DNA from: Synechococcus sp.
GTDB lineage: Bacteria; Cyanobacteriota; Cyanobacteriia; PCC-6307; Cyanobiaceae
NCBI GenBank assembly: GCA_047284725.1
Contig: JBJBEO010000001.1
Span: 1,752,203 to 1,816,202 of the forward strand
Length of the DNA stretch: 64,000 bases
Reading direction: 5' to 3'
The position numbers and the translations under genes are program-made. The first letter of the stretch is position 1. Each line of letters starts with the position of its first letter. Below, piece by piece: positions 1 to 64,000 of the stretch. The notes under the pieces are model-generated. The model was not told the origin of the DNA, did no database searches, and saw nothing but the letters and a program-made list of their open reading frames with translations.

Positions 1-2
1 CA

Positions 3-15743: not shown

Positions 15744-15768
15744 AGCAGGCGCTCCTGAGTCGCCCTGA

Positions 15769-15954: not shown

Positions 15955-16036
15955 CGGCAGGTCGCGGCAGCCGCCAGACGCGGAGCGTCACGTTAGGCAG
16001 CACGGCACGATTGGGTCACTCCGCTGCCGCCCCCTG

Positions 16037-47154: not shown

Positions 47155-47159
47155 CAGCT

Positions 47160-48122
47160 TCACATCTGCACGAAATTGACCCATTGCCCGATCAGCAGCA
47201 CCAGCAACGACGCCGCCAGCGCTGTCACACCAATCGCTTTTGGGCGTAACAGCACGGTGAAGAGACCCGCCAGCTTGAGGTCAACCACCGGGCCCAGCAG
47301 CAGAAAAGCGAGCAAGGCCCCCGGGGTCACCTGGGCGGCAAACCCGAGCGCCAGAAAGGCATCAACGCTGGAGCAGACCGACACCACCAGGGCCAGCAGC
47401 ATCAAGGCCAGCACCGAGAGGGTTGGGGCTGAGCCCACCGCCAGCAACCAGGCCCGCGGCAGCCAAGCCTGAACAGCGGCAGCCAGGCCACAACCAACCA
47501 GCAAAAGCACCAGCAAACCGAGAAATTCTCGGCTGCTGTGGTGGAGCACCTCCACCAATGACAGTTTGGATGCGCTGGTTGACGCAGAAGAGAACGGAGC
47601 GGACTCCGCCCCGAGGACGCCGCTGCCACGCTCCAAAAGCCCCACCTCAGCAAGGGGCTGACTCAACCTGCGCTCCTCAAGCAACGCAGGGACCAACAGA
47701 GCCCTTTCGCCCAGGAGCCCCAGCAGAGCACTGAGGGCCAGAGCAATCAGAAAAGCCCCCAGGGGGCGAGCCACCAACAGCCAGGGTTGATCCGGGAAAG
47801 CAGCCCAAGTACTGGCCAACACGATCGGATTGAGCACCGGTGCAGCAAACAGGAAGCCGAAACCGGTGCCGAGCGGAGCACCGCTGGCCAGTAAACGCCG
47901 TGCGACAGGCACATTGCCGCACTCACACGCGGGCAACGCAAAGCCCAGGAGAGCGCCGACAACCGGGGCCAGGAGTGGATTCCGCGGCAATCGGCGCACC
48001 CAGGCGGCCTGAGGCACAAGCCAGCGCGCCAGGGCCGCGATCGCCACCCCCAACAACAGAAACGGAAGCGACTCAATCAGCAAACCCTGAAAGATCGCCC
48101 ATGTATTGGCCAGTCGCTGCAT
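47160..48122 (-). CDS. DUF318-family permease
   Basis: PACECGNVP, AAPVLNP, SVCSSVDAF, GPVVDLK. Confidence 0.9.
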   Translation of the reverse strand: MQRLANTWAIFQGLLIESLPFLLLGVAIAALARWLVPQAAWVRRLPRNPLLAPVVGALLGFALPACECGNVPVARRLLASGAPLGTGFGFLFAAPVLNPIVLASTWAAFPDQPWLLVARPLGAFLIALALSALLGLLGERALLVPALLEERRLSQPLAEVGLLERGSGVLGAESAPFSSASTSASKLSLVEVLHHSSREFLGLLVLLLVGCGLAAAVQAWLPRAWLLAVGSAPTLSVLALMLLALVVSVCSSVDAFLALGFAAQVTPGALLAFLLLGPVVDLKLAGLFTVLLRPKAIGVTALAASLLVLLIGQWVNFVQM

Positions 48123-48190
48123 CTCAGTCGCTTCTCGCCTTGATCATGACGCGCCCGAACGGGCACGCAACGGGATGCATGGCACCCGGA

Positions 48191-48207
48191 ATGAGAACGA
48201 TTATCAT
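48191..48207. promoter_or_regulatory. Zur/Fur-type box
   Basis: Imperfect palindrome ATGAGAACGATTATCAT between the divergent permease and znuA-like genes; zur gene nearby. Confidence 0.7.
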
Positions 48208-48238
48208 CCCTTCGGAAAACCGATGCTTCGCCCCTGAC

Positions 48239-49159
48239 TTGGCACGACCAACAACGTTCTTCCTGCCAGTGCTCACAGCGCTTGTTATCGCATCGCTCCC
48301 CCCGGCCGCAGCGGCCGCGGTGCCAACCGTGGTGGCAGGCGATGGCGTGCTCTGTGATCTCACCCGCACCCTGTCCGGCGGTGCCACAGACGTGCGCTGC
48401 ATCCTGGCTCCCGGCACCGATCCCCACCATTTCCAACTGACACCCAGGAATCGGCGCGATGTCGGCGCAGCCGACCTGGTGCTGATCAATGGCTATGGAC
48501 TCACCCCCACATTGGCGCGTCTGAGCGGATCGTTCACCCTGGTTGCCGTTGGCGAGGAGGCGGTTCCCGGCAACCCCTCCCAGGACCCCCATCTCTGGCA
48601 CAGCCCCGTCAACACAAGCGCCATGGCCGCTGTGGTGTCGCGCAGGCTGCAAGACCTCCCTGTCAGTCGTGAATCGAAAACCGGCTTGCAACGACGCCAA
48701 CAAGCCGTGACCGGCATTCTTCGTGATCTGGACCAATGGAATCGTCGACAGATCGCGACGATTCCGTCAGCCCATCGTGCCTTGGTGTCCGAACACCTTG
48801 CCTTTGGCTTTTTCGCCGACCGCTACGGCTTGAACCATGTCGCCATGATCGACGATTACGCGACAGGAGGACAACTGCGCCCCTCCAGCCTGAACCGCAT
48901 CAGTGATGCCGTGAAAGCATCCAACACAAAGGTTTTATTTGCAGAACAACGCCCTCCATCCAAAACCCTGCGACGGATCAGCAAGCGCTCTGGTAAACCC
49001 ATTGCCTCGACAATTCTTTTCGCCGATGGCACTGCACCCAACAAGAGTTTGATCGAGACAGCAACTGCAAACACCTGTAATCTCGTGAAAGCCCAGGGTG
49101 GAACCTGCGACCAGACAGGTGCGAATTCCCTTCAACAGCGCTGGGAAGCGGTGCGCTGA
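48239..49159 (+). CDS. znuA: Zn/Mn ABC transporter substrate-binding protein
   Basis: DPHH, DPHLW, EHLAFGFFADRYG. Start uncertain. Confidence 0.85.
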   Translation: MARPTTFFLPVLTALVIASLPPAAAAAVPTVVAGDGVLCDLTRTLSGGATDVRCILAPGTDPHHFQLTPRNRRDVGAADLVLINGYGLTPTLARLSGSFTLVAVGEEAVPGNPSQDPHLWHSPVNTSAMAAVVSRRLQDLPVSRESKTGLQRRQQAVTGILRDLDQWNRRQIATIPSAHRALVSEHLAFGFFADRYGLNHVAMIDDYATGGQLRPSSLNRISDAVKASNTKVLFAEQRPPSKTLRRISKRSGKPIASTILFADGTAPNKSLIETATANTCNLVKAQGGTCDQTGANSLQQRWEAVR

Positions 49160-49203
49160 AAAGCCGAACCTTTCTCATTGCAATTCTTCGATTTCCTCAG
49201 ACC

Positions 49204-50241
49204 ATGATCCGCTTCAATCTCTCATCGTCAGCCCTGACGTTTCTTGGACTTCTCACACCTTTAGGGCTCACTGTCGCCTATCCACTGTCCGCCGAAGCAG
49301 GTGCTGGCCACAACCACGGTGGAGGCTCCGAGGAAGAACTTGAGAGCGGCGAATTTCGTTCCATGCCGGTGATCACCCTCGAAGGCCATGGTGGTTATGA
49401 AAACAACCTCGAAGGCAAACCAGCCCACTACGCCATTGATGGGATGTTCGGCGCAGTGATGGAATGGGGGCTTCCAAATCAGGGCAGTTTCGCGATTGAG
49501 GCCGCCATCGGACCAGCCTTGGTCTGGGGTGAAGCCGAGCACTTCTATGGCCGGGTTGAACTGGAAGAAGAGGAAGGCGAGGAAGCCCATGGCGACGAGG
49601 ACCATGGTGATGAGGACCATGGCGACGAGGAGCATGGTGACGAGGATCACGCCGAACACGGCGAGGAGGGGCATGGCCACGCAGAGGGCCAGCCGTACCG
49701 ACGCATCGACATGAAGGGCATGCTTCAGGCCCGTTACCAACCCAACGATCGGCTGGCCATTTCAGCCACTTGGAAGCCTTACTTCGTCACCAAATCCCAG
49801 GGGGAAGACATTCAAGGCGTCAAGCACGAAGTGTCCGCCGACATCACCTATGCCTTCGGAGATGGAGACGTCAACTTTGCTCTGGGTGATGGCCTGGAAT
49901 CAGTGATCGATGGAGTTTTTGTGTCGGTCAGCAACCACTCGGGCTGGGAGAGTGATGGCGTTTACCTCGGCAACTACACCGACACCAGGGCAGGGTTTGG
50001 CTTCAATTACGACCAGCTCAACGTCACCCTGACCGGTGGGCCACGCTTCTATACACCCGGCTCCTATTCAGGCCTCTCTCAACGCACGGACTGGGGCGGC
50101 GAGATTGCCCTGGAATACCCCATTTCTGATTCGGTCATTGCGTTCGCCCACTGGGAAGCGGTTTACAGCACCGCCTCCGGCGAGGGTTGGGGCAAAGGAT
50201 TCCAAAACCACGTCGGCACTGGATTAACGTTCCGCTTCTAA
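49204..50241 (+). CDS. His/acidic-rich putative outer-membrane beta-barrel protein
   Basis: Signal peptide, GHNHGG, (HGDED)n insert, alternating beta strands, terminal GLTFRF. Confidence 0.75.
   Translation: MIRFNLSSSALTFLGLLTPLGLTVAYPLSAEAGAGHNHGGGSEEELESGEFRSMPVITLEGHGGYENNLEGKPAHYAIDGMFGAVMEWGLPNQGSFAIEAAIGPALVWGEAEHFYGRVELEEEEGEEAHGDEDHGDEDHGDEEHGDEDHAEHGEEGHGHAEGQPYRRIDMKGMLQARYQPNDRLAISATWKPYFVTKSQGEDIQGVKHEVSADITYAFGDGDVNFALGDGLESVIDGVFVSVSNHSGWESDGVYLGNYTDTRAGFGFNYDQLNVTLTGGPRFYTPGSYSGLSQRTDWGGEIALEYPISDSVIAFAHWEAVYSTASGEGWGKGFQNHVGTGLTFRF
49588..49647 (+). repeat. 15-bp coding tandem repeat x4 (HGDE[D/E])
   Basis: CATGGYGAYGAGGAN repeated four times. Confidence 0.9.
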
Positions 50242-50248
50242 GTGCTTA

Positions 50249-50284
50249 AGGGTGATCACGTTGATCGTGATCACCCTCCCTTTT
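50249..50284 (+). terminator. Hairpin terminator between convergent genes
   Basis: AGGGTGATCACG-TTGAT-CGTGATCACCCT, 12-bp stem. Confidence 0.75.
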
Positions 50285-50694
50285 CAAGCAGAGGGTTGGC
50301 CGGCTTGGGGTCTGCAACGGCCACACAACCCGTAAAACTCCAGGGTGTGGAACAACACCTCATAGCCATCCTGCTGATCCGCAGGAATGGTGATCGAATG
50401 GAGGGGACAGGTGGCAAGCTGCTGTGTCTCACCACAGCTCACACACGTGAGGTGATGGCGGTCACGGGCCACCGGCGCGTAAAGGGCTTCCCCCGTTGGC
50501 AGCTGACGGCAACGCACCAGACCCATCTGCTGCAGGTGCCGCAGATGGCGATAAACCGTAGCGAGGCCCATCGCCTGATCGGCCTTGAGGAGGGCCCGAT
50601 GCAGCTGCTGACCACTGAGCTCGTCGTCGTTCGCTTCCAACAGAGCGATCAATCTCTGTTGCTTGTCACTGATGTCGACCTGAGAACCGGCCAT
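50284..50694 (-). CDS. zur: Fur-family regulator, Zur-like
   Basis: GLATVYR, DRHHLTCVSC, HTLEFYGLCGRC. Confidence 0.88.
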   Translation of the reverse strand: MAGSQVDISDKQQRLIALLEANDDELSGQQLHRALLKADQAMGLATVYRHLRHLQQMGLVRCRQLPTGEALYAPVARDRHHLTCVSCGETQQLATCPLHSITIPADQQDGYEVLFHTLEFYGLCGRCRPQAGQPSA

Positions 50695-51631: not shown

Positions 51632-52375
51632 TTGGTTCTTCATCGCTTCAAACGCTGTCATTGCCACACCCAGCAGCGGGGGTTCAGCACCCAGCAGGTC
51701 CTCCTCATTCTGCTGGTGGTGTTTCCCCTGGGATGCATCGCCCTGGGACTGATCCTCAACGGGGTGATGCAACGCAGCAAGACGTCAGAAGCGACGGAAC
51801 CAGAACCCCCATCAACCATCGCTGCCAAACCGGAACCGATGGAAGCCGCCGGTGATCCGGATCCAAGCCAGGTTGAAACAGCCCAGCAGGACGCTCCACA
51901 GGCAGCACCAGCAGCGAGCGACACAGTGGAGCTCGGGGCCTCCGTGACGGGTGTTCCAATCCGGTTGCTGATGCAAAGCATCAACACGCGCGACAGGCAA
52001 TTCCGGGACTTTCAATATCAGCTCGGCAGCAGCACCGTTGCGGCGATGGCCAACTGCACCGATCAAAGCTGGACGAGTTACCCGGAGCGCCAGCTGAATC
52101 GGCCCCAGTCCCCCGCGACGGAGCGCATGCTCAGGCTGGTGTGCGGGACAACCAACGAGGCCGACCCGCCAGCCCCATTACCAGACCCTGCTTTTCCCGG
52201 GGTGGCGATCGTGTTCGACCCACCCAGCAATGTGCGCAGGAGCCCAGGCGGAGCCTTTCTTTGCACCGTCAACAACCCGCGCAGCATCCGCGTCGGTCAG
52301 GCCCAGGGTGAGTGGTACCCCACCTCGGCGTGTGGACCCCAGGGGTTCATCCATCGCAGCCAGGTGCGCTTCTGA
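51632..52375 (+). CDS. Membrane protein with GFSTQQ leader and C-terminal SH3b-like domain
   Basis: GFSTQQVLLILLVVFPLG, Pro-rich linker, then VFDPPSNVR..P...GEWY..C..GFIHRSQV. Confidence 0.75.
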   Translation: MVLHRFKRCHCHTQQRGFSTQQVLLILLVVFPLGCIALGLILNGVMQRSKTSEATEPEPPSTIAAKPEPMEAAGDPDPSQVETAQQDAPQAAPAASDTVELGASVTGVPIRLLMQSINTRDRQFRDFQYQLGSSTVAAMANCTDQSWTSYPERQLNRPQSPATERMLRLVCGTTNEADPPAPLPDPAFPGVAIVFDPPSNVRRSPGGAFLCTVNNPRSIRVGQAQGEWYPTSACGPQGFIHRSQVRF

Positions 52376-52401
52376 TCAACACCTCCCCTGCAGGGCTTCC
52401 T

Positions 52402-52968
52402 ATGCCGATGCTCCCTCTCCGCCACCCCTCCACAGCAGGCTTCTCCAATCAACAGGCCCTTCTCGCCCTGCTGGTTGTCTTTCCGCTCGGAATGATGTGC
52501 ATCGGGATGGTGGTCACCCTGGCCCTGCGATCCACCTCCGCCTCCACAGCCCAGGCACCGGCGCCAGCAATCCAGACACCAGCCCCGAGTGCATCTCCAG
52601 CATCCGAGCAGCCAGAGACCGTCAGACCGGCCCCTGCCCCATCGACGCCCGTCAAACCCCTGGCGAATCCGGGATCGGCCAATCCAACTCCCAGCAGCGC
52701 CAACACCTGCTGGTTCCAGATGCAACGGGGAGGACCTCTGATCGGTGATCGTTGCAGCGTGACGCTACGGGTCAATGTCAACGGAGACCGGGTCTTTGAT
52801 GTGATTGAGCCTTCGGGCTTGAAGCGATCCGTGGTGCTGTGGGAGAACGATGACGTGGAAGTGTTCCTGAACGAACAGCGCTACACGGGAAGCTGGCTTG
52901 TGGATGATGAGGGCGATGTTCGCGTCAGCCTGGCCGGAGGCACCTTTGCATTTACGCCTCCTCGCTAG
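52402..52968 (+). CDS. Membrane protein with GFSNQQ leader and beta-rich C-terminal domain
   Basis: GFSNQQALLALLVVFPLG; Pro/Ser linker. Confidence 0.75.
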   Translation: MPMLPLRHPSTAGFSNQQALLALLVVFPLGMMCIGMVVTLALRSTSASTAQAPAPAIQTPAPSASPASEQPETVRPAPAPSTPVKPLANPGSANPTPSSANTCWFQMQRGGPLIGDRCSVTLRVNVNGDRVFDVIEPSGLKRSVVLWENDDVEVFLNEQRYTGSWLVDDEGDVRVSLAGGTFAFTPPR

Positions 52969-53002
52969 AGCGTCAGGCTCATGCCGTCTGGAGAGCGACC
53001 GT

Positions 53003-53557
53003 TCAGCAATCCTCCTCACCCTGCTGCCTGATCAGCAGGATGAATCCAGACAGAATCGACACCAGGGCCAGACACGCCACCACTGCGATCACGGGAGTCG
53101 CCGCAGGGGTTCCTGAGGCTGGAGACAACGCAGGCTCTTGCGGTGGCCGAGGCAACGACTGGTTGTCAGCCGGCAAGGGCTCAGCCATGGGCTGGCCTGG
53201 CTGCATCCGGACATAACGCACCAAGCCATGAAGCCCCACCAACACGGACTGATCAGACGACACATCCAGAATCAGTCCGGAGCCTGTTGATTGAGCCACA
53301 AAGTGAATTCTGTTCTGCTCAAGAAACTCCCAGCGTGCATCAGAGCTGACACCAAACATCGTCACGGTCGCGCGACCGTCAGGCTGAAGATAAAGACAGG
53401 ACATCTGACTCTCAGACTGATCAGATCCGAGCCCCTCCAAACAGTACTTGCCATGTAGCCGCGACCCTGGCGACGCAAAACAAGCCTGAAGCAGAACACA
53501 CCCAACGAAACAAGCCGCGACACGACTGCGCAGAGAAGACAGCCGTCGTTGGCTCAT
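53003..53557 (-). CDS. Hypothetical protein with signal peptide and C-terminal TM anchor
   Basis: Hydrophobic N- and C-termini, Pro-rich linker. Confidence 0.6.
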   Translation of the reverse strand: MSQRRLSSLRSRVAACFVGCVLLQACFASPGSRLHGKYCLEGLGSDQSESQMSCLYLQPDGRATVTMFGVSSDARWEFLEQNRIHFVAQSTGSGLILDVSSDQSVLVGLHGLVRYVRMQPGQPMAEPLPADNQSLPRPPQEPALSPASGTPAATPVIAVVACLALVSILSGFILLIRQQGEEDC

Positions 53558-53573
53558 GATGCGGCTTGCAACA

Positions 53574-54458
53574 TCACAAGCCGGCCTGTCCATTGTCGAA
53601 GCGCTCAAAACCACAGAGACGCGCCGCCGCTTGATACTCAGGGTCGAAGCGATCCCAACGGAAACTGCGGGGATCGTAGCGACTATGGCTGCGGTCAATC
53701 GCCTGATGGGTCGTCAGGCGTGTCAGAGGAATTCCGAACTTGGCCTGCCACAGCAACACCTGGCCAGCCAGATTGCGGTATTGCGCAGAGGTGTAGCCCG
53801 AGTGGCCACTGCGATCATCCCGACCATCAACTGGCGAAACAAGACTGATATGCAAAGCGATGTTATTCACCGAGCCAACACTGGACGCTTTGGTGCGCTG
53901 GGTGACATCACCAAACGCCGACATGCCAGCACCGTAGGCGCGCTTTTCATCGGGGACGATGCGCAACCGTGCGCCATCGCGTGCAATCAACATGTGATAA
54001 CTGGCCTGATCAGCATCGTTGGGATGCGGCGTCTGAAAGAAGGCCACCGTGGCTTTCTCACTGATCACGGTTTCATGCAGCACGATCAGCAACGGCTCAG
54101 CCTGAAGAGCACGGTTCCAGGCATCGACAACTTTGCGTTCGCCGAAATTCGTGGCATCGGCCAGTTGATCCATCTCTGCTGTCAGCGCGAGCGTCTTGGC
54201 ACAGCTGGCGATCTCCTGCGCCGACGCAGGAGGCAAACCAGCATCGGCCAGTGTCATCACAGGCGGAAGGGTCAGACCCTGTTTCGGGCTTTGCCCCTTG
54301 CCCCGGACTGAGCCGTCGTCGTTGGGATTGGTATGCCCGCTGATGGAGGGATGCTGCGGATCACCCGCCCCTTGCCAGGGGAAACGAAACGGCAACGACG
54401 TGCAGCCGCTGAGCAGGATCAGAGCTGCGGCAACAGACAACGAACGAACAAGAGTCAT
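53574..54458 (-). CDS. N-acetylmuramoyl-L-alanine amidase (Amidase_2) lipoprotein
   Basis: LSGC lipobox; IVLHET, ASYH, RAYGAG, TTH..D, DP. Confidence 0.85.
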   Translation of the reverse strand: MTLVRSLSVAAALILLSGCTSLPFRFPWQGAGDPQHPSISGHTNPNDDGSVRGKGQSPKQGLTLPPVMTLADAGLPPASAQEIASCAKTLALTAEMDQLADATNFGERKVVDAWNRALQAEPLLIVLHETVISEKATVAFFQTPHPNDADQASYHMLIARDGARLRIVPDEKRAYGAGMSAFGDVTQRTKASSVGSVNNIALHISLVSPVDGRDDRSGHSGYTSAQYRNLAGQVLLWQAKFGIPLTRLTTHQAIDRSHSRYDPRSFRWDRFDPEYQAAARLCGFERFDNGQAGL

Positions 54459-55118
54459 TTACTGCTTGCGATAGTCCCAGATTTTCCAGCGACCAGACTC
54501 TTCTTTGAGGGTGTAAATCCAGTCTTTGGTACTTGAGGACGTTTCACTGCCCTTGGGCGAGTGCAGATTGGAAACCTCGGTCACCGACACGACAATCGAA
54601 GGCATCGAAGGGGACGGCAAATAGCGGATCACCCGATTCACCTTGATAGTGGAATAGCTGTAATAGCTGTTGTTGTTCTTGAGCCACTGGATGGATCCAT
54701 CCGGCTTGGTTAAATCGGTCCATAAAGGTCCAGCCGCCACCACCTGATCAGCCAGATCGGTGTTGAAAGGCGGAGCGAAGATCTGAGATTTCACCGTCAA
54801 CCACTCCTCCACGATGGCTCTGGCTTGCTCCTGGGTGAGACCAGATGGCTGAGGAGCCGGCTGCTTCTGCGGGGGCAGCGGCTGAATCGTGGTGGATCGC
54901 TCAGAGGACTCCGGTCGCTCCACCGGCTGGGGAGCTGGAGCAGGGGCGGGGGCCGTCGCCACCGTGCTCTGACGCTGCAGCAGCACGATCACCAGCCCCA
55001 GCGCCACCAGGCCGAGGGGAAACAGCAGCAGCAGAACCAGCAGGGCTTGCTGGTTACTGAATCCTTGATCACCGCGCAGCCGATGGCGGAAGCGGCTGAT
55101 TGGCGTTGAGCGACTCAC
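54459..55118 (-). CDS. Membrane protein with GFSNQQ leader and ARC6/IMS-like (DUF4101) domain
   Basis: GGAGG RBS + GTG; GFSNQQALLVLLLLFPLG; A..IV..WL..K..IFAPPF...WLKNNNSYY...V.E...Y.L....WKIWDY. Confidence 0.8.
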   Translation of the reverse strand: MSRSTPISRFRHRLRGDQGFSNQQALLVLLLLFPLGLVALGLVIVLLQRQSTVATAPAPAPAPQPVERPESSERSTTIQPLPPQKQPAPQPSGLTQEQARAIVEEWLTVKSQIFAPPFNTDLADQVVAAGPLWTDLTKPDGSIQWLKNNNSYYSYSTIKVNRVIRYLPSPSMPSIVVSVTEVSNLHSPKGSETSSSTKDWIYTLKEESGRWKIWDYRKQ

Positions 55119-55241
55119 AGAATGACCTCCGGGAACAACGTGGTCAAAGCAGCTGCACCGTGCCTGTCGTGCCACACCCAAAGCAAGGCCATTGGACAAA
55201 CGGTCACAATGATGCACTGATCAGGATCGGAACCAGGGTGA

Positions 55242-56132
55242 TTGAAGCAGGTGCCATCAACCAGAGCCGGCGTGTCTCCTGATCCAAAGCGTCAACCCGG
55301 ACCATGGCCAGCACTGGGTTCCTGGGCTGCGATTCAGCTCCTGCATCAGGCTCCAGCCCAGGCAGCATGGGACCTGCGCCACGCAGCGGCTGTTGAAGAT
55401 CTCCTGAACGACTACATCAAGACGCTGCCTGAGGGAGCCAGCATGCCGGCGCCGAGGCTCTTCCTCTACAAAGGCACTGCGTTTTCAAGGGCCTGCCCAG
55501 GATCCGGCATCGAGGCCCCCGCCTACTGCCCTGGGGATCACACCGTTTATCTGGAAATGGGGCTGGGCGATCAAGTGGCCACCATGTACGGAGATTTCGG
55601 AGCCCTGTCGATCCTGTCGCATGAATTCGGCCACGCCTACATGAGTCAACGCCAGCTGCATCCCCCGGGCAAACAGGGAGAGCTGGCCGCTGATGGTTTC
55701 GCCGGAGGGTTCGCCCGTTATGTCGAGCAACTGGGGCTTCTGGAAGCCGGTGACATCGATGAAGCCCGCGCCACCTTTGCCGCCGTTGGCGACTATCAGG
55801 TGTATCACCATGATCACCACGGCACCCCCAACGAGCGCCGTCAGGCCTTTGAGGCCGGCTACCAGCAAGGGTTCCGTCTGCCGGGGGAGCCACCCACAGC
55901 TCAACCGCCCACAGTTCAATCACCAACCGCTCAACCACCGAGAGCACAACCCCAGCAACCCGCGCCCCAACCCGACCAACCGGCGATCGTTCCCTCTCCG
56001 ATTCCTGGTCAGGCCAACCAGGTCAGCGCCGTTGGTCCCGTCCTTGGCCTCGGCCTCGGCGTTGTTTTCATCGCCTTGATGTTGATCGCCGTTGTCACGC
56101 TGATCAACAGGGCCCGTGATGAAGAGTTTTAA
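55242..56132 (+). CDS. Neutral zinc metallopeptidase (YpfJ-like) with C-terminal TM
   Basis: PAYCP.D, HEFGH, ELAADGFAG, HGT..ER. Start uncertain. Confidence 0.85.
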   Translation: MKQVPSTRAGVSPDPKRQPGPWPALGSWAAIQLLHQAPAQAAWDLRHAAAVEDLLNDYIKTLPEGASMPAPRLFLYKGTAFSRACPGSGIEAPAYCPGDHTVYLEMGLGDQVATMYGDFGALSILSHEFGHAYMSQRQLHPPGKQGELAADGFAGGFARYVEQLGLLEAGDIDEARATFAAVGDYQVYHHDHHGTPNERRQAFEAGYQQGFRLPGEPPTAQPPTVQSPTAQPPRAQPQQPAPQPDQPAIVPSPIPGQANQVSAVGPVLGLGLGVVFIALMLIAVVTLINRARDEEF

Positions 56133-56637
56133 AACCACAGTTCCAACCCCCACAGGGTTCAGCAACCAGCACGCCCTGCTGGTGCTGTTGATTCTGTTTC
56201 CTCTGGGCTTGATGGCCATCGGCAGCCTCGCCGTTCTGTGGTTGAAACAGCCGTCCGTTGTTGCTGACACCCCTTCCAAACCAACCGCCACCGAACCCAA
56301 CCAACCTCAGGCCAGGACCAATGCCAATTCCAATTCCAACGATCACAACAAGACCACCCCAGTCCCTGATCTGATCGCGTTGCAGGAGCAACGCCTGAAT
56401 GACCTTGCCGATGCCATTTTCTGGCGGCGCCATCCATCCCTGCAAGGCGTCAAATTGAGTGGTCAAACAGGCGACTTAGCCCGTGAATGGAGCCGGATCC
56501 GCCACTGCGACGCCATCGTTGATGATCGTTTTTATCGCCTCCATCCACACATGCGCGGACGCACGATCCAGCCGAACCAGACGGAGCTGGCGGCGAGCTG
56601 GCAACGCTTGCGCGATCAAGTCGAGGGTTGCTCCTGA
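56119..56637 (+). CDS. Membrane protein with GFSNQH leader and internally repeated helical domain
   Basis: GFSNQHALLVLLILFPLG; repeats D.IFWRRHPSLQG..L...W and D.RFYRLHPHMRG..I...W. Confidence 0.75.
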   Translation: MKSFKTTVPTPTGFSNQHALLVLLILFPLGLMAIGSLAVLWLKQPSVVADTPSKPTATEPNQPQARTNANSNSNDHNKTTPVPDLIALQEQRLNDLADAIFWRRHPSLQGVKLSGQTGDLAREWSRIRHCDAIVDDRFYRLHPHMRGRTIQPNQTELAASWQRLRDQVEGCS

Positions 56638-57551
56638 ACGCTCGCACGCGTCGAGCGCGGCCGCAGAACCACGACACCGATCGATGCAGGAACCGAGCGC
56701 ACATACGCAGCAAACGGATGCGAGCGGATCACCCCCTTCCCAGGCACGGCATGGATGGCTGACACGCCATCGGCATCACGCACCACAACACCCATATGCG
56801 TGACATCAAGCCCAGGAACGGACGTGGCAATCGCAAACAGATCACCATTCTGGAAGGAACGACTCGCCAGTTCCAGACCATCATTGGGGAGATAGATCTG
56901 TTCAATCGTCAGACGACGCTCCTTCTCTTGAATGCAGCGGAGCGTTGAAGGCGTCTGCAACGGGGAATAGAGAGACGGATGGTCCGACATATAGGTGAGA
57001 TTCAAGACGCGTCGCTGATGACCGGCCACCTCATCCGTGACATCCTCAACCCATCCCTGATCAGCGGCCGATGCCGCCCAGCTCTGGAAATAATGATGAC
57101 GCGAGCAGTAATCAACACGGCCCGCCTCGTATCGCATGGTTTGCGTTGTCGCCACAAACGATGGCCAATCGGATGACACAGCCAGCGCCAGAAGTTGCTC
57201 AACCAACAACATGCAATCAAAACGTGTCAGATCAACGCGCAATCGCTCTGCGCCCCCTTCATCCAGGGAAAAGGCGACATAGGGAGTGCCGAGAAACGAC
57301 TGAGCCAGGGAAGCGACGGTCTGAGCAGGCTCGAGCTCACGCATCCATCCCTTGATCTCGGAATACAACTCCTCACTGCCGGGAGCGACCTGCACCTGCG
57401 GATCCGACGCAGGACGATCCGACGCCAGGGCCGATGGCCCGATCGCACGCTGACGCTGCGGGTTGAACGGCTGATCGGCGGCAAGGCCACCTGCCGCCGA
57501 AAGAGAGACCACCAAACCCGCAAGCCCCATCCACCGGCGTGCACGCATCAC
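56616..57551 (-). CDS. DUF1460 / NlpC-P60-like amidase
   Basis: FLGTPY, FDCMLLVE, Y..R.HYF..W, GLDVTHMG, HA. Confidence 0.85.
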   Translation of the reverse strand: MMRARRWMGLAGLVVSLSAAGGLAADQPFNPQRQRAIGPSALASDRPASDPQVQVAPGSEELYSEIKGWMRELEPAQTVASLAQSFLGTPYVAFSLDEGGAERLRVDLTRFDCMLLVEQLLALAVSSDWPSFVATTQTMRYEAGRVDYCSRHHYFQSWAASAADQGWVEDVTDEVAGHQRRVLNLTYMSDHPSLYSPLQTPSTLRCIQEKERRLTIEQIYLPNDGLELASRSFQNGDLFAIATSVPGLDVTHMGVVVRDADGVSAIHAVPGKGVIRSHPFAAYVRSVPASIGVVVLRPRSTRASVQEQPST

Positions 57552-57626: not shown

Positions 57627-58919
57627 TTGACTCCGAAATCGTTCTGCCTATCGCTGCGATGCGGACTCTCAACGACGGCCATCGCCATGGTGATCAGCGG
57701 CTGCGCCTCCGCACAACTGCCCAGTTGCGTGATCGGCCTGGAGGCACCCACCCCAGAGCAACGTCAGCGCTGGGAGGCTGCTCCTCAGGTCACCAGCCTC
57801 GACCTGGGCATTGATGGCAGCAGTTCCATGTTGGGGCTCACAGGCTCAGCCGACAGCGCACGGGCCTGGAAGGGCCTGCTCAAAGGCGTCAGCCTGGGTG
57901 CCGCGGCCAACGGGCTCAGCCTGAAGACCCAACGCATCGGCAGCGGTCGCGGCAGCACGGTCTCCAGCCCGATGCAAGCCGCCGACGCCTGTTTCTTTCA
58001 GGGGTGTGGTGCCTTTGCAGCGGTGACCTCCAGCCTTGAATCGCTCTGGAGCAGCCCAGGCCTCAGCCAGGGCAAGCCACCTCTTCGCCTCGCCATCAGC
58101 GATCTGGAGGTGAACGATGGCGACATCGCCAACCTCGTGGGAGCCATCCGACCACATGTGGAGCAGGGAGCCGTGATCGGCGTGCTTGCCGTTCGGCTGC
58201 CATTCGCAGGCAGGGTGTACAACAGCCAGGGCACCGTGATCCACGAGGGCACAGCGGAACGCCCCACCTACCTGCTGGCGACAGGGCCGCGCTCCCAGGT
58301 GCACAACCTGCTCAAAGACGTGAAAACGAAAGCAGCCCTGGCGGGGGTGCCGACAGGCTCCATGCACCTCACCCTGCTGGATGAGCAGGCCAATGCACCC
58401 ACCCTGGTGGCGAAGAGCATCGCGGGCGACAACAGCGGTTACGGCCAGCCGTTGCGTCTCGGAACAACCACCTTCAGCCCGAGTGGCAATGGAAAGTACC
58501 AATTCGCAAGGCTGTTTGAGGGAGCCAATCGTGTCGTTCTCAGCAGCGGAGTGGGCGTCAGCGCCCAAGCGCCGCTGCTGCCCGACCTCGGCCTGATCAA
58601 TGTGCTGCCGGTGGCCTTGCCTGGCACCTCAAGCCACAGCAGCGGCGTGGATGTGGATGGATTCCAGGTGAACGGCACTGACTTGAGCGTGGGCTTGGGG
58701 ATCGCCGACACCACCATCGGCGGGGCCGTGCGGGCGACGGTTGCTCGCGGCCAACTTCCGGAAAGCTGGTGGGTGCGTTGGAATCGCCTGACCCCCAAAG
58801 CAGAGGACGCACGGAATCAAACTGACGGATTATTGCTGTTGCTCACAAGTTTGAGCCAGTTGATGGTTCAAAATGGCACCACTCCAGCCGCGTCTCTCTG
58901 CCTGGCTTTCAGTCGGTAA
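57627..58919 (+). CDS. Lipoprotein with vWA-like (MIDAS) domain
   Basis: ISGC lipobox, IDGSSSM (DxSxS), AISDLE, F.G.VY...RP.Y. Confidence 0.7.
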   Translation: MTPKSFCLSLRCGLSTTAIAMVISGCASAQLPSCVIGLEAPTPEQRQRWEAAPQVTSLDLGIDGSSSMLGLTGSADSARAWKGLLKGVSLGAAANGLSLKTQRIGSGRGSTVSSPMQAADACFFQGCGAFAAVTSSLESLWSSPGLSQGKPPLRLAISDLEVNDGDIANLVGAIRPHVEQGAVIGVLAVRLPFAGRVYNSQGTVIHEGTAERPTYLLATGPRSQVHNLLKDVKTKAALAGVPTGSMHLTLLDEQANAPTLVAKSIAGDNSGYGQPLRLGTTTFSPSGNGKYQFARLFEGANRVVLSSGVGVSAQAPLLPDLGLINVLPVALPGTSSHSSGVDVDGFQVNGTDLSVGLGIADTTIGGAVRATVARGQLPESWWVRWNRLTPKAEDARNQTDGLLLLLTSLSQLMVQNGTTPAASLCLAFSR

Positions 58920-58934: not shown

Positions 58935-59471
58935 ATGCGAATTCTGCAGTTCATCACCCTTGCCCTGTCGGTTGCTCTTGGCATGGTGTGGATTTTTATT
59001 GTTCAAAACTCGATCTTTCTGCATGTTTTGGCTGGTCCCTTGAGTGGACCTGGCATGAATGTTGTTGACTTCCTGCAGATCGGCAGCAGTCCCGCCTTCA
59101 CCGTGTTCTGGGCTGGCTGCATCTCAGCGCTGCTGATCTGGTTTGTGATCACGCTGAGCTCGCGCCCCCGCAGCTCCGCCCAGACCCGGGGCATGCAACC
59201 GATGTGGTGGCTGGCAGCGGCCCTGCTCACCCTGTTCGGCTGGCTGTGCCTGGGCTGGTTCACAGCATTCAGCTGGACCATGAGTGGTGTCAGCCCGATC
59301 GCAGGCTCTGCTCAACTCTTTTTTCCACTTCCCCCGGGTGGGTGGCTGATGCTGATGGGATTTGTGATGCTCGATGTGATCCTGCTGTTCTGGTTACCCA
59401 CCCTGGTCGCGTCGCCTCGCACCTACCGCTTCGTGGTGCCCGGAGCCGTCACCCTTCTGGGCAGTCGCTGA
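58935..59471 (+). CDS. Integral membrane protein (about 4 TM)
   Basis: Hydrophobic ORF ending 1 bp before the tubulin-like gene. Confidence 0.8.
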   Translation: MRILQFITLALSVALGMVWIFIVQNSIFLHVLAGPLSGPGMNVVDFLQIGSSPAFTVFWAGCISALLIWFVITLSSRPRSSAQTRGMQPMWWLAAALLTLFGWLCLGWFTAFSWTMSGVSPIAGSAQLFFPLPPGGWLMLMGFVMLDVILLFWLPTLVASPRTYRFVVPGAVTLLGSR

Positions 59472-59472: not shown

Positions 59473-60972
59473 ATGAAACAGATTTTCGCCATCGGCGTCG
59501 GCGGCACCGGCGCTAAATGCATCGAGGCGCTGGTGCATCTCCATGCCTGCGGATTGCTCACCGATCAAGACGGCAACCCAGCCCGATTGGGGGTGTTTCT
59601 GGTGGAGCCGGATCAGCAGAGTGCTCTGCTGCTCCGTGCCCAGACAGCGATCAACCGCTACGGCTCCCTGCGCCGGGCCGTGGGACGTCAAAGCGACCGG
59701 TTTGCCCGCGCCGAACTGCGGGATTACGGCCAGTGGAGTCCACTGAGCACAGCCTCCGGTGCCATCAGCCTCGATCAGGTCTTCCCCAAGGCGGTGCTGC
59801 GCACCCAGGCGCCAGGGGTGGCGGCTTTGTTTGATTGCCTCTTCCCCCCCGAGGAGCAGAGTGCCGACCTGGAAGTGGGGTTCCGCGGCCGACCACCGAT
59901 CGGATCGGCAGTGATGAGCCGCATCAGCCTCGAGCAGGAGGCTCAGGTGGGCCAATGGCAGCAGATGCTGAGCGACATCCAGACCGCCGCCGGCAGCGGC
60001 GAAGCACCGGTGGTGCATCTCTTCGGCAGTGTGTTCGGCGGCACCGGCGCCTCCGGGGTCCCCACCCTCGGCCAGCTGCTCAAAAACTGGCTGAAGCGAC
60101 AGGGGCTCACCAGCGTCCAGGTGCAGGCGTCACTGCTGCTGCCCTACTTCGATTTCGAGGGGATGGCCGACGACGACACCGGTGTGCACGCCGAATCACG
60201 CAACTTCCAGCTCAACACGGACGCCGCCCTGCAGTACCTCCGCACCAGCGGTCGCGCCTGCTTCGATCGGGTCTATCTGGTGGGGAGCGACATCAAGGCG
60301 CGCTACGGCTTCAGCATCGGTGGCACGTCCCAATCGAATGCCGCCCACATGGTGGAACTGCTGGCGGCCCTCGGGGTGTGTCATCCCGGCACGACAAGCA
60401 ATGGCTATGCCCATGTGCTCAGCCGGACGGAGCAGCAGAGCATGGGCTGGGAAGACCTGCCCGACAACGAGATGGTGGGCGATGCCCTGGCCCGCGGCGC
60501 TCGCTTCGCCGTGGCATGGCGCAACAACATCACCCGTGAGATCAATGAGGCCCAGAAGGTGCCGATGCGCACCTTCCTCAGTGGTGCGCCATGGGCGCGG
60601 CGCTTCTTCCATCCTTCCGGGTCGGGCACCGACCGAGGCATGCGGCCTGGCATCCGTGACAAGGAACAGCTCACGGTGCAGAACGCCATTGATCAGTACT
60701 GCGACACACTGCTGCAGTGGCTCAACCAGGTTTCGAGCAACCTCGGCAGTGGATTCCGCCAGGAGCTGTTCACCGCCTCACTGCTAAGGCCCAGTGACCG
60801 CTTCGAGAACAACCTCAGCCGCGTGGTGAAAGGCAAGGCGAGGCCCCGCCGCCCCGAAGCCTCCGACACGGTGGAAGCGATCAAGGTGCGGATGGATCAG
60901 CTCAAGAGTGATGCCATCTCCCATCGCGGCATGGCCGGCCTTGCCGATTGTCTCTGGTCTCTTGTGGTCTGA
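59473..60972 (+). CDS. Divergent FtsZ/tubulin-like GTPase (Tubulin_2-type)
   Basis: T1-like IGVGGTG, GFRGRPPIG, T4 signature GSVFGGTGASG, LLLPYF, GG.SQ.N..H..EL.AAL. Confidence 0.85.
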   Translation: MKQIFAIGVGGTGAKCIEALVHLHACGLLTDQDGNPARLGVFLVEPDQQSALLLRAQTAINRYGSLRRAVGRQSDRFARAELRDYGQWSPLSTASGAISLDQVFPKAVLRTQAPGVAALFDCLFPPEEQSADLEVGFRGRPPIGSAVMSRISLEQEAQVGQWQQMLSDIQTAAGSGEAPVVHLFGSVFGGTGASGVPTLGQLLKNWLKRQGLTSVQVQASLLLPYFDFEGMADDDTGVHAESRNFQLNTDAALQYLRTSGRACFDRVYLVGSDIKARYGFSIGGTSQSNAAHMVELLAALGVCHPGTTSNGYAHVLSRTEQQSMGWEDLPDNEMVGDALARGARFAVAWRNNITREINEAQKVPMRTFLSGAPWARRFFHPSGSGTDRGMRPGIRDKEQLTVQNAIDQYCDTLLQWLNQVSSNLGSGFRQELFTASLLRPSDRFENNLSRVVKGKARPRRPEASDTVEAIKVRMDQLKSDAISHRGMAGLADCLWSLVV

Positions 60973-61016
60973 ACCCACAACAGTCGTTCGATCACTCCCC
61001 AGCACCCTCTCAAGCC

Positions 61017-64000
61017 ATGACCTCCTCTCCCTCGCAGGACATCGTTCAGATTCCCTGGTTCCCGAAAACCGATCCACCCCTCGGAGGCGGAGCCCAGGCT
61101 GGGGAATGGCAGGGGCGTGACCAGCAGAGCCTCGGCACGATCGCCAAGAGCCTCGTCTACGAGGTGGCGACATCACGGGTGAATTCACTGCCATCGCCCT
61201 GGTCACGGGCACTGCAGTTCGAGCAGGCGGTGCTGAACTCGCGCTACCCCACGCGCGATTCCCTGCTGGAGGAGCTGTTTGGGGGCATGGCCTGTCTCGG
61301 CCTCTGGGAGATGTTTGGCCTGCGCCTCGATGCCCAGCGGGTCTCCCTGCTGGACCATGCCGACCTGCAGGACGATGCGGTCGGGCCGTTCTCCCGCAGC
61401 CTGGCCGCCTCGCTCCCTGATGGACGCAACGCCCTGTCACGCCAACCGGAGGGACGGAACCCCTGGGAAGTGGTGTATGTGTTCACCCTGCAGGGAAGCG
61501 TGGTGGGCTTCAGCTCCCCCAGCACGCTGTTCTGCCCGGCCGTTCACCTGCCTCAGCCGATTCAGGGGATGGGCTGGACCAACAGCGGACGCTTCACCTC
61601 CCCCGTGGATTTTCTGGGTGCTCCCCAGCGCCAGGCCCTGGGGGATTGGTTCAGCCACGTGAAAAACGGCATGCTCAATGCGAGCGATCTGCACAGTCAG
61701 ACCAGCGCTGGACAGATGGCCGAAGTGCTGGATCTGTTCATTCACCGGCTCACCGCGGGCCGGCTCGGCACGCCCACCCTGTCCGACACCGGACGGGTCG
61801 CCAATCTTCCCTCCAATCCGGTGGCCCTGTCGCTGCTGGCCAGGCCGGCCAAAGGCGGCGTCAGCGCCAGCCAGGCAACGCTGGAACTGGGCGATCGGCT
61901 CCAGGCACCGCTCGGTGACACCCCCGCCAGCCAGCCGGTGGTGCTGGTGGACCCCGACATGCCCAACAAGCTTGGGGTGAGCGCGGCCGACATCTGCCTC
62001 TACAAATCGGCGACGTTGGAGTCGATCGGCTTCGATCCAGGCCAGCTCGATCGCCAGTACGGCAAAGAGATCACGGTGCTCACCCCTGATCAGATCTTTC
62101 TGGATGAGCTCTATCTGGTCGCAGGAGAACAAGCGCTTCAGAACTCCTGGCTTCCCAGCCGGCTGGAGGGCGTGCCGCGGGTGAACGGCGAGGCTGTCAC
62201 CCCCCTGCTCCCCCTGCGTCCGGAGATCCGCCGACTGTTCAGCAGCCGTGAGCTCAGGGAGCGCTGCCAGCTGCGGGTGATGCAATCCAGCGTCAGCAAT
62301 GAGGTGGAAGTGAGGCTCAGCCTTCCCCTGCAAGGCCAGCGTGAGGGCTATTCGCTGGCTCGCTCCTACCCCCTGAAGGAGCAGAACCTGGTGGCGGAAG
62401 ACCTGCCCGTGATCACCCTCTGGCCCTACGTCAGCGATGAACGCTGGCGCCTCTATTACCTGTTCTGCGAAGACAGTCCGTCGGCGCTGACCGTGGATGG
62501 CTTCAGCGATTACGACCGCAAGCTGGGCCGAGATAACCAGCAGGTGGTGAAGTATTTCACCACCCAGCACTTCCCCGACCTGGTGCGCCTGAGCGAGCGC
62601 GGTCAGGATCGAGGCCTGCTGCCGGTGACCCCGCCGGCCTCGTGCCCGGATGTGGGCACCCAGTGGCAGGTCGGCATCGACTTCGGCACCTCCTTCACCA
62701 ACTTCTTCATCGATGAGGGGGGCGGGCCGGAGCGCCGGCACCTCGAGACACGGGTGATTTCCCTCACCCTGTCGCAGAAGGAAGAACGTCAGCGACTGCT
62801 CAACCAGTACTTCGTTCCCGAGGAAATGCTGCCCAACACCGACAGGGCCAGCAATCCCCCCACCGCCACGGCCATCAGCCTGCGCGGCTGGCAGGAAGTG
62901 CTCGGTCAGGTGCCTGAGCTCTTCCATGAGGCCCGGCTGCGGGTGCCCAGCCCCGGTGAATTCGGTGGGGCTGAATTACGCACGGGCTTCAAATGGGAGC
63001 AGATGCAGTACCAGAAACCCTTCCTTAAAGAGGTGGCGCTGCTGGTCAGTGCCAACGCCGCTGCCAACGGTGCCCAGGAACTGCAGTGGTCGGTGTCGTA
63101 TCCCAGCGCCTTCTCCCCCAATGAAGTGGCCCGCTACCGGCGGGTGTGGGTCGAGCTCTGCGATGACCTCAACCAACTCACCGGCCTGCGCCATGCCCTC
63201 AATGCCAAAGCCGGAGAGGGGGGACTGCAAACCGAGGCTGTGGCCTTCGCCAGCTACTTCGGCAACTTCCAGAACCGCCAGATGGTGCACACCTCCTGCC
63301 TCGACGTGGGTGGAGGCACCACCGACATCTCGATCTGGCAAGACAACCGACTGATCCATCAGGTGTCTGTGCCGTTTGCAGGGCGCGACATCAGTTCGCA
63401 GCTGCTGCGCCGCAAACCGTCGTTCCTCAAGTCGCTGTTTCCACCGAGCCTCACCGCCGACATCAGCGACGACGAAGCCAAAGCCCGTCAGGACCGCAAC
63501 TTCACCAGCCGCCTCGACAACATCATGCGCTACGGCTCCGATGAGCTGCTCGCCGGCCGGCTCGACATGCTGGTGAATCAGGAGTCGACCCTTCAGGAAC
63601 CGCTGCAGCAATTCCTCAGTCTGCTGTCGGTGAGTTTTGCGGGGATCTACCACTACCTGGGTCAGGTGCAGCAGGTGCTGCGCGACGAAGGCAAACTGAC
63701 CCGTCGCACGCCGACGCCGGTCTACATCGGTGGCAATGGCGGACGTTTGATCAACTGGATTGATGCCAGTTCTCGTTTCCAGAAGGGGGGCGATCCCGAC
63801 CGCCTGATGGAGCGGATGCAGATCAAGGCCTCCGGATGCGACGCCGGCAACGCCTGCACCACCCTGTCGGATGCCTACAAGGATGAAACCGCCTGCGGCC
63901 TGATCAGTTCGGGCGTGAATCTGATCGGCGACTTTGATCCCCGTGACGACGTCATGGTCTGCGGGGCCAGTCTGGTGGTGAATGACCTGCACTTCGCGTG
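61017..64000 (+). CDS. Large protein (>990 aa, 3'-partial) with actin/Hsp70-fold ATPase domain
   Basis: Starts MTSSPSQDIV. In-frame motifs: SLPSPWSR, VGIDFGTSFT (62670), TEAVA, LDVGGGTTD (63300), YIGGNGG (63723). Absent from the ORF track, consistent with no stop before the window end. Confidence 0.85.
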   Translation, partial: MTSSPSQDIVQIPWFPKTDPPLGGGAQAGEWQGRDQQSLGTIAKSLVYEVATSRVNSLPSPWSRALQFEQAVLNSRYPTRDSLLEELFGGMACLGLWEMFGLRLDAQRVSLLDHADLQDDAVGPFSRSLAASLPDGRNALSRQPEGRNPWEVVYVFTLQGSVVGFSSPSTLFCPAVHLPQPIQGMGWTNSGRFTSPVDFLGAPQRQALGDWFSHVKNGMLNASDLHSQTSAGQMAEVLDLFIHRLTAGRLGTPTLSDTGRVANLPSNPVALSLLARPAKGGVSASQATLELGDRLQAPLGDTPASQPVVLVDPDMPNKLGVSAADICLYKSATLESIGFDPGQLDRQYGKEITVLTPDQIFLDELYLVAGEQALQNSWLPSRLEGVPRVNGEAVTPLLPLRPEIRRLFSSRELRERCQLRVMQSSVSNEVEVRLSLPLQGQREGYSLARSYPLKEQNLVAEDLPVITLWPYVSDERWRLYYLFCEDSPSALTVDGFSDYDRKLGRDNQQVVKYFTTQHFPDLVRLSERGQDRGLLPVTPPASCPDVGTQWQVGIDFGTSFTNFFIDEGGGPERRHLETRVISLTLSQKEERQRLLNQYFVPEEMLPNTDRASNPPTATAISLRGWQEVLGQVPELFHEARLRVPSPGEFGGAELRTGFKWEQMQYQKPFLKEVALLVSANAAANGAQELQWSVSYPSAFSPNEVARYRRVWVELCDDLNQLTGLRHALNAKAGEGGLQTEAVAFASYFGNFQNRQMVHTSCLDVGGGTTDISIWQDNRLIHQVSVPFAGRDISSQLLRRKPSFLKSLFPPSLTADISDDEAKARQDRNFTSRLDNIMRYGSDELLAGRLDMLVNQESTLQEPLQQFLSLLSVSFAGIYHYLGQVQQVLRDEGKLTRRTPTPVYIGGNGGRLINWIDASSRFQKGGDPDRLMERMQIKASGCDAGNACTTLSDAYKDETACGLISSGVNLIGDFDPRDDVMVCGASLVVNDLHFA

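Follow-up and report, generated by a model that had tools for sequence, protein, structure and literature searches.

An N-terminal tag on unrelated cargo domains looks like an undescribed docking or processing signal in a small group of picocyanobacteria

What does one conserved N-terminal sequence do on otherwise unrelated proteins? The question is raised by a gene cluster of Synechococcus sp. (assembly GCA_047284725.1, contig JBJBEO010000001.1, positions 1,752,203 to 1,816,202 of the forward strand), a stretch of 64,000 nucleotides that is called the window below and whose numbering is used throughout. Four of its genes encode proteins, here named A to D, in which a short leader is followed by the motif GFS.Q..LL.LL..FPLG (the tag, numbered from its Gly as position 0; dots stand for any residue), a Pro-rich linker, and a C-terminal domain that differs from protein to protein. 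A first-pass annotation of this DNA had described the tag as prepilin-like. Our analysis indicates that it is a selected protein module that looks like an undescribed docking or processing signal in a small group of picocyanobacteria, not a pilin signal.

A six-frame regular-expression scan found exactly four matches to the motif in the window, with Gly codons at 51680, 52438, and 56155 on the plus strand and at 55064 on the minus strand, the positions already given in the first-pass annotation. Two other six-frame matches, with five substitutions each, are unrelated sequence, and 100 first-order Markov resamples of the window yielded neither strict nor loose (≤3 substitutions) matches. A local hidden Markov model (HMM) built from the four tags scored them at 84 to 88 bits, and the next best open reading frame (ORF) of the window at 7 bits. 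With gene limits that are likely limits read from the DNA, protein A (247 residues; 51632..52375, plus strand) starts with TTG, as supported by the homologue P0006, which opens with the same four residues; a leader of residues 1 to 16 precedes the tag core (51680-51733), the linker, and two beta domains. Protein B (188 residues; 52402..52968, plus strand; ATG start) has a leader of residues 1 to 12 and a tag core at 52438-52491, followed by a Pro/Ala/Ser linker and a beta-rich C-terminal domain with two Cys. Protein C (219 residues; 54459..55118, minus strand) starts with GTG 7 nucleotides after a GGAGG, and its leader (residues 1 to 18) and tag core (55011-55064) lead into a Pro-rich linker and an ARC6-like IMS domain. 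Protein D (172 residues; 56119..56637, plus strand; ATG start) has a leader of residues 1 to 12 and a tag core at 56155-56208 with His at +5; its gene overlaps the stop codon of the preceding Zn-peptidase gene by 14 nucleotides and is translationally coupled to it.

The four proteins align over tag and linker alone, and past the tag three Pro columns and one Arg column are invariant. Over the first 18 tag codons, paralogue pairs differ by 5 to 10 synonymous and 2 to 6 non-synonymous codons, and 52 to 58 of 81 nucleotides are identical; synonymous differences prevail in five of the six pairs, and the A-D pair has 5 synonymous and 6 non-synonymous ones. This synonymous divergence, which the first-pass annotation had also seen, means that the tag is conserved at the protein level. 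Judged from the codons, its conservation is a matter of protein-level selection and neither of recent gene conversion nor of an RNA element. A scan of 50.8-57.7 kb for promoters and terminators gave counts not above those of shuffled sequence. The tag also proved to be undescribed as a domain, as first supposed: it has no family in Pfam (2025 copy) or NCBIfam 20.0, the four motif strings did not occur in a text search of 8.4 million papers, and nothing relevant to it was found among the matches listed for the ARC6-like IMS domain and Tubulin_2/PF13809.

How widely is the tag distributed? A profile of the four N-termini was searched against 1.84 billion cluster representatives (50% identity) and returned 27 proteins at E≤0.001. 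The tag is borne by 26 of them, with a start always within residues 1-21; the other, P0029, is a 491-residue repeat protein that was matched in nine stretches and was read as a false match. Among 185,579 species genomes, the pattern GF[ST]NQQ[AV]L[LI], which misses variant tags such as those with Leu+1/Lys+3, matched 54 stretches, 13 of which were confirmed by tblastn at eight loci (L001-L008). The carriers are Synechococcus CUG2217, MIT S9503, and Cruz-7E5 (two loci on one contig), a Cyanobium metagenome-assembled genome, "Cyanobacteria bacterium bin.51" (two contigs), and one contig labelled Salipiger bermudensis; since the pattern misses variant tags, these six genomes are a lower bound. 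Regular expression and HMM together gave 19 tags, four in the window and 3, 3, 3, 1, 1, 1, 1, and 2 in L001 to L008, scoring 40 to 88 bits with the local HMM, against 11 bits for the next best ORF. A word-indexed search with B residues 1-46 found two near-identical proteins among four candidates, and the ESM Atlas gave no usable match to B or to residues 1-52 of C. The contig labelled Salipiger bermudensis (L008, CAXQPR010000117.1, a metagenome-assembled genome) carries two tags and is syntenic with 45-54 kb of the window, with 65-79% protein identity over five genes there, including ZnuA and a gene for an outer-membrane protein (OMP)-like product; it is probably misbinned.

Conservation within the tag was profiled over 49 unique sequences. 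Gly0 is present in 49/49, Phe+1 in 43 (Leu in 6), Ser or Thr+2 in 48, Asn+3 in 40 (Lys in 7), and Gln+4 in 46. Position +5 is Gln in 41, His in 6, and Asn and Leu in one each; Glu is absent, and the four window proteins have Gln or His there, as first noted. Further along, Ala+6 (45), Leu+7 (47), Leu+8 (45), and Leu+10 (48) are followed by Phe+14, Pro+15, Gly+17, and Gly+22, each in 48 of the 49. Positions -4 to -1 are unconserved, and conservation fades past +22. The Leu+1 variants are D-class proteins (P0143-P0149), and a subgroup of the D homologues has Leu+1, Lys+3, and His+5. In the window's own D, the His+5 arose recently, given that P0141, a relative of 97% identity, has Gln.

Orthologues are 62-79% identical over the 24-residue tag, 56-83% over the folded cargo domains, 0-25% over the leaders, and 16-48% over the linkers. 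The Zn-peptidase of the cluster provides an internal control from the same genomes: its C-terminal transmembrane (TM) anchor is 36% identical and its catalytic body 73%. At 62-79% against the 36% of a plain anchor, the tag is constrained like a functional domain and unlike a generic anchor.

Each tag protein shows a single Kyte-Doolittle peak. In 26 of the 42 proteins scanned, 20-24 uncharged residues follow Gln+5, and in the remaining ones this stretch is shortened by Ser, Asn, or Glu inside the helix. The leader carries a positive net charge in 28 of the 42 proteins, zero in 11, and a negative one in 3. AlphaFold2 (AF2) models were built for D and A from shallow alignments of 14 and 7 rows, respectively. 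In the model of D, a helix at residues 16-42 is followed by a stretch (44-79) with predicted local distance difference test scores (pLDDT) below 50 and by three helices, 83-104, 119-141, and 155-167, at pLDDT>90. The model of A has a helix at 20-49, a stretch (50-95) at pLDDT<50, a beta domain at 98-172, and a small beta domain at 192-241. A signal-anchor is characterized by one N-terminal hydrophobic helix that, with some 20 residues or more, exceeds the length of a cleavable h-region, and the tag proteins have such a helix.

What, then, is carried behind the tag? At least six cargo classes, A to F, were distinguished, in agreement with the initial view of the tag as a selected module on otherwise unrelated cargo. 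C residues 99-213 match the ARC6-like IMS family (PF13355; 1.2e-18, 68.1 bits against a cut-off of 22.8), as recognized from the start, and C orthologues of 63-66% identity are present in L001-L005. D was initially taken for a helical repeat; it is instead a confident three-helix domain with two invariant Cys, for which Foldseek returned no match (best E 1.4). Its family comprises 13 homologues, and 13/13 are tagged, two of them having start calls inside the tag. The SH3b-like label given to A applies weakly and to the second of its two beta domains: Foldseek found no match at E≤0.001 for the model of A, and the weak SH3b-like matches of the last domain, e.g., to 2kt8 and the LysPBC5 wall-binding domain, have a probability of 0.97-0.98 over 59 columns but E values of 0.2-0.4. 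Orthologues of A are found in L003 and L008 and in clusters P0006/12/21/24.

The domain of B, at first described as beta-rich, matches phrog_2953 (residues 96-183, 6e-14), with homologues in 45 Synechococcus phage records and 38% identity to phrog_2953 over residues 97-178; B orthologues occur in L001, L002, and L003. In Synechococcus phage ACG-2014f_Syn7803C8 (L009, 2435-2785), the one phage gene in which the signal peptide was read, a 116-residue homologue of the B domain lacks both tag and linker and starts with a cleavable Sec-type signal peptide. T4-like cyanophages thus encode a secreted homologue of a host periplasmic cargo domain, phrog_2953 being a family of unknown function. A phage search with A and D gave no match.

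The E class consists of P0007/23/25/26 and genes in L006 and L007, and the F class of P0015. P0015 and P0025 agree at 49 of 54 N-terminal residues, a stretch that spans leader, tag, and linker start, and have unrelated C-termini; this is a recent cargo swap. Likewise, the alignment of E-class and C-class profiles is limited to the first 93 columns. The Sec signal of the phage B homologue, the IMS domain of C, and the two invariant Cys of D place the cargo in the periplasm. Moreover, since the phage B domain stands directly behind a Sec signal, the tag stands in place of an export signal. The earlier term "extracellular" was therefore too strong: the architecture and the phage Sec homologue point to periplasmic domains tethered to the inner membrane.

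The tag genes have a largely conserved neighbourhood. The conserved order runs from an actin-fold protein (~1100 residues), a Tubulin_2/FtsZl1 protein (~500 residues), a four-TM protein (178 residues), a lipoprotein-like protein (430 residues), and an AmiA-like protein to tag protein D, the Zn-peptidase, a UPF0259-like four-TM protein that is not in the window, and tag protein C, and then to Amidase_2, a bitopic protein, tag protein B, and tag protein A. This order of 13 genes is kept in L001 and L002 and largely in the window, L003, L004/L006, and L007; Cruz-7E5 and bin.51 have an E-class gene at the opposite end of the operon. Wherever a genome allows a judgement, the tags stand beside peptidoglycan amidases, the Zn-peptidase, and the FtsZl1 tubulin/actin-like operon. 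Thirteen of the 19 tags are at most 10 kb away from the tubulin-like gene (window, L001, L002, L004, L006, and L007), five are on short syntenic contigs that break off within the cluster (L003 and L008), and one (L005), with transposase and integrase genes on its flanks, lies away from the operon. From Synechococcus sp. MIT S9503, whose genome is complete, the pattern scan returned this one locus alone. On the evidence of about six related genomes, the tag is accordingly not scattered without a link to the operon, and the link to the tubulin-like operon that the first-pass annotation had proposed is seen in the window, L001, L002, L004/L006, and L007.

Taken together, we favour, at a probability of roughly 45%, the reading that the tag is an uncleaved signal-anchor through which exchangeable periplasmic modules dock to a membrane partner that they have in common. 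The tag would be a lineage-specific N-terminal signal-anchor (type II) module. Its short, variable, mostly basic leader would lie in the cytoplasm, the invariant Gly and the following Phe-(Ser/Thr)-Asn-Gln-Gln-Ala-Leu-Leu at the cytoplasmic membrane face, and the fixed Phe-Pro-x-Gly...Gly core in one transmembrane helix. The cargo domain would be exported across the inner membrane and be tethered in the periplasm by a disordered Pro-rich linker of 35-50 residues. As the tag is conserved like a folded domain and ordinary anchors of the cluster are not, it is probably recognised by one shared membrane partner. IMS/NTF2-type, SH3-like, three-helix, and phage-shared beta modules would in this way be gathered at one site, beside the amidases and the Zn-peptidase whose genes lie among theirs. 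This site would most likely be a complex formed by the products of the adjacent operon, namely the lipoprotein, the four-TM protein, the FtsZl1 tubulin-like protein, and the actin-fold protein, with the operon's four-TM protein as a candidate partner of the tag. A bolder version, which we regard as doubtful, is a new N-terminal address label: an operon component or a dedicated peptidase would read Gly-Phe-Ser-Asn-Gln-Gln and the Phe-Pro-x-Gly helix and so plug modules and peptidoglycan hydrolases into one trans-envelope machine.

Several observations weigh against the docking of an uncleaved anchor. The positive-inside signal is weak, since the 15 residues after the helix mostly carry a charge of 0 to +2 (range, -2 to +2). 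The invariant Gly with its Phe or Leu and the unbroken conservation between Gly0 and Leu+8 suggest an enzyme recognition site rather than one face of a helix, and the partner of the tag is putative. The evidence comes from about six related genomes, so that the linkage may reflect shared ancestry and not function. Furthermore, the four-TM family numbers 111 clusters (90% identity), compared with 13 for the D family (90%) and 26 representatives for the tag (50%), which suggests that the operon may exist in many genomes without detectable tags. Finally, the gene that adjoins the C-class gene in all five of the other loci where it is visible (L001-L005) encodes the UPF0259-like four-TM protein, and tblastn found no match to this gene anywhere in the window.

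Could the tag be a divergent class III signal that a PilD-like A24 peptidase cuts between Gly and Phe (or Leu) at the cytoplasmic face? We consider this unlikely. The mature proteins would then be helix-anchored or would be assembled into a short pseudopilus- or bindosome-like array showing different periplasmic domains. Class III signals (PF07963/TIGR02532) resemble the tag in being N-terminal, in a short variable leader that ends in an invariant Gly (-1 relative to the cut, 49/49) followed by Phe (43) or Leu (6), in a conserved polar residue at exactly +5 (here Gln in 41 and His in 6), in a hydrophobic helix of ~20-24 residues (~23 in the tag) with helix-breaking Pro/Gly, and in placing one module before different C-terminal domains; the unbroken conservation from Gly0 to Leu+8 also looks like a recognition site. 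The sharing of one N-terminal module by unrelated cargo is also seen in archaeal class III sugar-binding proteins, which we count in favour of a class III signal. In addition, a terminal minor pilin without Glu5, PilX, is described in passages of PMC13759059, and supplement file 5 of PMC2875224 lists a COG2165 pseudopilin in one FtsZl1 neighbourhood, in Thermosynechococcus.

On the other side, that neighbour occurs once in the supplement table of PMC2875224. The four proteins have no match to N_methyl (PF07963) or TIGR02532 at Pfam E≤10 and NCBIfam E≤0.1, in searches whose HMMER filters drop most matches above about 0.1, and the tag profile finds nothing in PDB sequences at E≤10. Glu at +5 occurs in 0/49 tags, its place being taken by Gln or His, and Asn-Gln occupies +3/+4 where class III signals have hydrophobic residues. 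By the definition in passages of PMC13759059, a pilin has an N-terminal helix that continues into a globular alpha-beta "lollipop" domain. In the AF2 models, the helix instead stops at residue 42 (D) or 49 (A), the next 36-46 residues have pLDDT<50, and no pilin domain is predicted, so that a disordered Pro-rich linker would replace the helix packed on a beta-sheet. Moreover, no pilus ATPase, platform protein, secretin, or A24 peptidase, and hence no nearby pilus gene, was found among the ORFs that were Pfam-scanned, namely 49 window ORFs and 72 further ones (63 flanking ORFs of ≥100 residues from seven loci and 9 from the window). The prepilin interpretation of the first-pass annotation thus fails on HMM match, Glu+5, pilin fold, and gene context.

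It is more unlikely still that the tag is merely the inherited membrane anchor of an old paralogous family, conserved for the needs of insertion and helix stability. The tagging of all D homologues would fit this explanation, as would the tags themselves, which by eye look more alike within a cargo class than between classes, as expected of old vertical paralogues. However, the other anchor in the cluster, at the same divergence, is 36% identical versus 62-79% for the tag, and the polar Asn-Gln-Gln and the in-helix Pro and Gly are fixed in 46-48 of the 49 tags. The cargo domains are unalignable, and one is shared with tagless phage proteins; this argues that the tag was joined to unrelated domains.

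Kaur et al. (2020) describe, in passages of PMC7159879, conflict systems in which variable effectors accompany tubulin homologues, HSP70-fold proteins, and vWA proteins. That the tagged proteins, amidases, and Zn-peptidase are the cell-wall effectors of such a system, with the tag marking proteins held at the membrane and released on infection, is the least probable of the readings weighed here: the cargo does vary among genomes, with one swap recent, the B domain is common to cyanophages, the Amidase_2 protein resembles endolysins, and defence genes lie at 1-6 kb of the window, but these genes are 45 kb from the cluster, nine cluster proteins gave no PADLOC match, the DO-GTPase and GAP1 that define such systems were not found by Pfam in the cluster (in a search that had no GAP1 profile), no GTPase or defence model matched, and the C, D, and amidase orthologues keep a constant order at 45-66% identity, more like housekeeping synteny than an arms race.

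How does the docking of periplasmic modules by an uncleaved anchor compare with known arrangements? Bitopic proteins of the FtsN/RodZ/ZipN(ARC6) type have a short cytoplasmic tail, one TM helix, a Pro/Gln-rich linker, and a small periplasmic domain. The tag proteins share this architecture and, like them, have genes next to those of amidases and of actin- and tubulin-fold proteins, and C has an IMS domain; the TM helices of the known proteins, in contrast, are not known to share a motif, whereas here a 24-residue sequence is common to at least six cargo classes. PEP-CTERM/exosortase, LPXTG/sortase, and PGF-CTERM/archaeosortase are systems of C-terminal sorting tags with dedicated processing enzymes. 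Like them, the tag combines a short signature, a TM helix, and charged residues on unrelated exported proteins and is clustered with a putative machine; unlike them, it is N-terminal, with its signature at the cytoplasmic and not the outer face, and no sortase-like enzyme was found in the cluster. Makarova and Koonin (2010) predicted a membrane-remodelling role for the FtsZl1 family and noted lineage-specific TM partners (passages of PMC2875224). The FtsZl1-vWA operons treated there likewise have a PF13809 tubulin-like protein in an operon with membrane and lipoprotein components and with lineage-specific TM proteins alongside; the passages and supplement file 5 of PMC2875224 mention neither a shared N-terminal tag nor neighbourhoods from picocyanobacterial Synechococcus.

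The remaining genes of the cluster are as follows. Directly downstream of C lies the gene for an N-acetylmuramoyl-L-alanine amidase (Amidase_2; 53574..54458, minus strand; Pfam 1.4e-16), which matches endolysin phrogs and comes after the C-class gene in L001-L005. The product of the next ORF (53003..53698, minus strand) resembles a lipoprotein at its N-terminus and carries a Pro-rich linker and a C-terminal TM anchor; the ORF has no Pfam family and no homology to the gene that takes its place in the other loci. That gene (L001 11466-11954, L002 11484-12020, L003 2754-3293, and L008 11524-12075) encodes the bitopic protein of the conserved order, which has no Pfam family and whose C-terminal ~70 residues are SPOR-like by eye. 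The putative neutral Zn metallopeptidase (55242..56132, plus strand; PF04228, 4.7e-13) has a Pro/Gln linker and a C-terminal TM anchor at residues 267-285; its match to NCBIfam NF050010 (1.7e-17) is below the cut-off. The products of 55242-56132 and 53003-53698 have a mirror architecture, in which a folded domain is followed by a Pro/Gln-rich linker, a C-terminal TM helix, and a short acidic tail. This suggests that the cluster tethers periplasmic domains from both ends; conservation of these C-terminal anchors is poor (36% for that of the Zn-peptidase). The AmiA-like amidase-like protein (56616..57551, minus strand; PF07313, 3.6e-41) is syntenic in L001 and L002.

The conserved operon begins, on the plus strand, with the gene of the 430-residue lipoprotein-like protein (57627..58919), whose orthologues in L001, L002, L004/L006, and L007 are 55-63% identical. 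It had been labelled vWA; a DxSxS-like stretch is visible in its translation, and no Pfam vWA match was found. It is followed by the four-TM protein, conserved in the operon and recognized by a TM scan (58935..59471), and by the tubulin-like protein of the Tubulin_2/FtsZl1 type (59473..60972; PF13809, 1.7e-07), which is 84-89% identical in L001, L002, L004/L006, and L007. The giant actin/FtsA-fold protein (60948..63998) runs off the window; it has a weak FtsA match (7.4e-05 in Pfam and 0.07 against PDB FtsA) and orthologues of 87% identity. Searches of PDB sequences with A, B, D, the 430-residue protein, and the tubulin-like protein gave nothing significant. Most of the invariant residues of the four-TM protein are Trp, Gly, or Pro; one Cys and one Gln are invariant as well. 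It was considered as a prepilin-peptidase-like aspartyl protease and rejected: several of 26 aligned homologues have other residues in place of its two membrane Asp, and no A24 profile matched it. Two of its clusters are labelled "CAAX protease" by JGI, a label that no Pfam model supports.

The UPF0259-like protein of the other loci has 229-253 residues and weak UPF0259 similarity, and its gene lies directly upstream of the C-class gene (L001 9220-9981, L002 9312-10004, L003 570-1313, L004 9309-9998, and L005 9297-9986). Its absence from the window led us to reject it as an obligatory partner. Transposase genes (rve, DDE_Tnp_1, and DDE_Tnp_1_assoc) at 7906-8958 and 11937-12920 of L005 and at 8252-8926 of L004 flank the unit of UPF0259-like, C-tag, and amidase genes and may explain its detachment from the operon in bin.51.

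Elsewhere, the gene content marks the window as cyanobacterial, with genes for an orange carotenoid protein and a CAAD domain protein and a GC content of about 60%. Positions 1-6400 hold a defence-type island with a type I restriction S subunit fragment and Mrr, HNH, and HNH-HIT proteins, in which a KAP P-loop NTPase lies in a stretch of 42% GC. The region 14000-20000 (69-72% GC), with genes for a gamma-glutamyltranspeptidase, an Fe-alcohol dehydrogenase, a hydrolase, and a cytochrome P450, may have been horizontally acquired. A zinc-type uptake cluster at 45086-50694 comprises ZnuA, an ArsP-type permease, a Fur-family regulator, and a His/Asp/Glu-rich protein whose match to a cyanophage OMP-like beta-barrel is just under the Pfam cut-off.

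If the tag is merely an anchor, the finding shrinks to a small lineage-specific protein family. As it stands, the tag offers a compact, testable case of how the sequence of a TM helix can direct sorting or docking in cyanobacteria, a group in which little is understood of how membrane proteins are sorted, and its cargo includes a domain exchanged between host and cyanophage behind different export signals. To our knowledge, the widespread FtsZl1 tubulin-like operons have been without a known function since their description in 2010. If the tag links periplasmic proteins to the operon, candidate clients are now named, small domains that face the wall and whose genes accompany those of amidases and a Zn-peptidase, and they point to peptidoglycan remodelling; should the tag indeed be an address label read by the operon, it would provide the first functional handle on the role of FtsZl1 operons.

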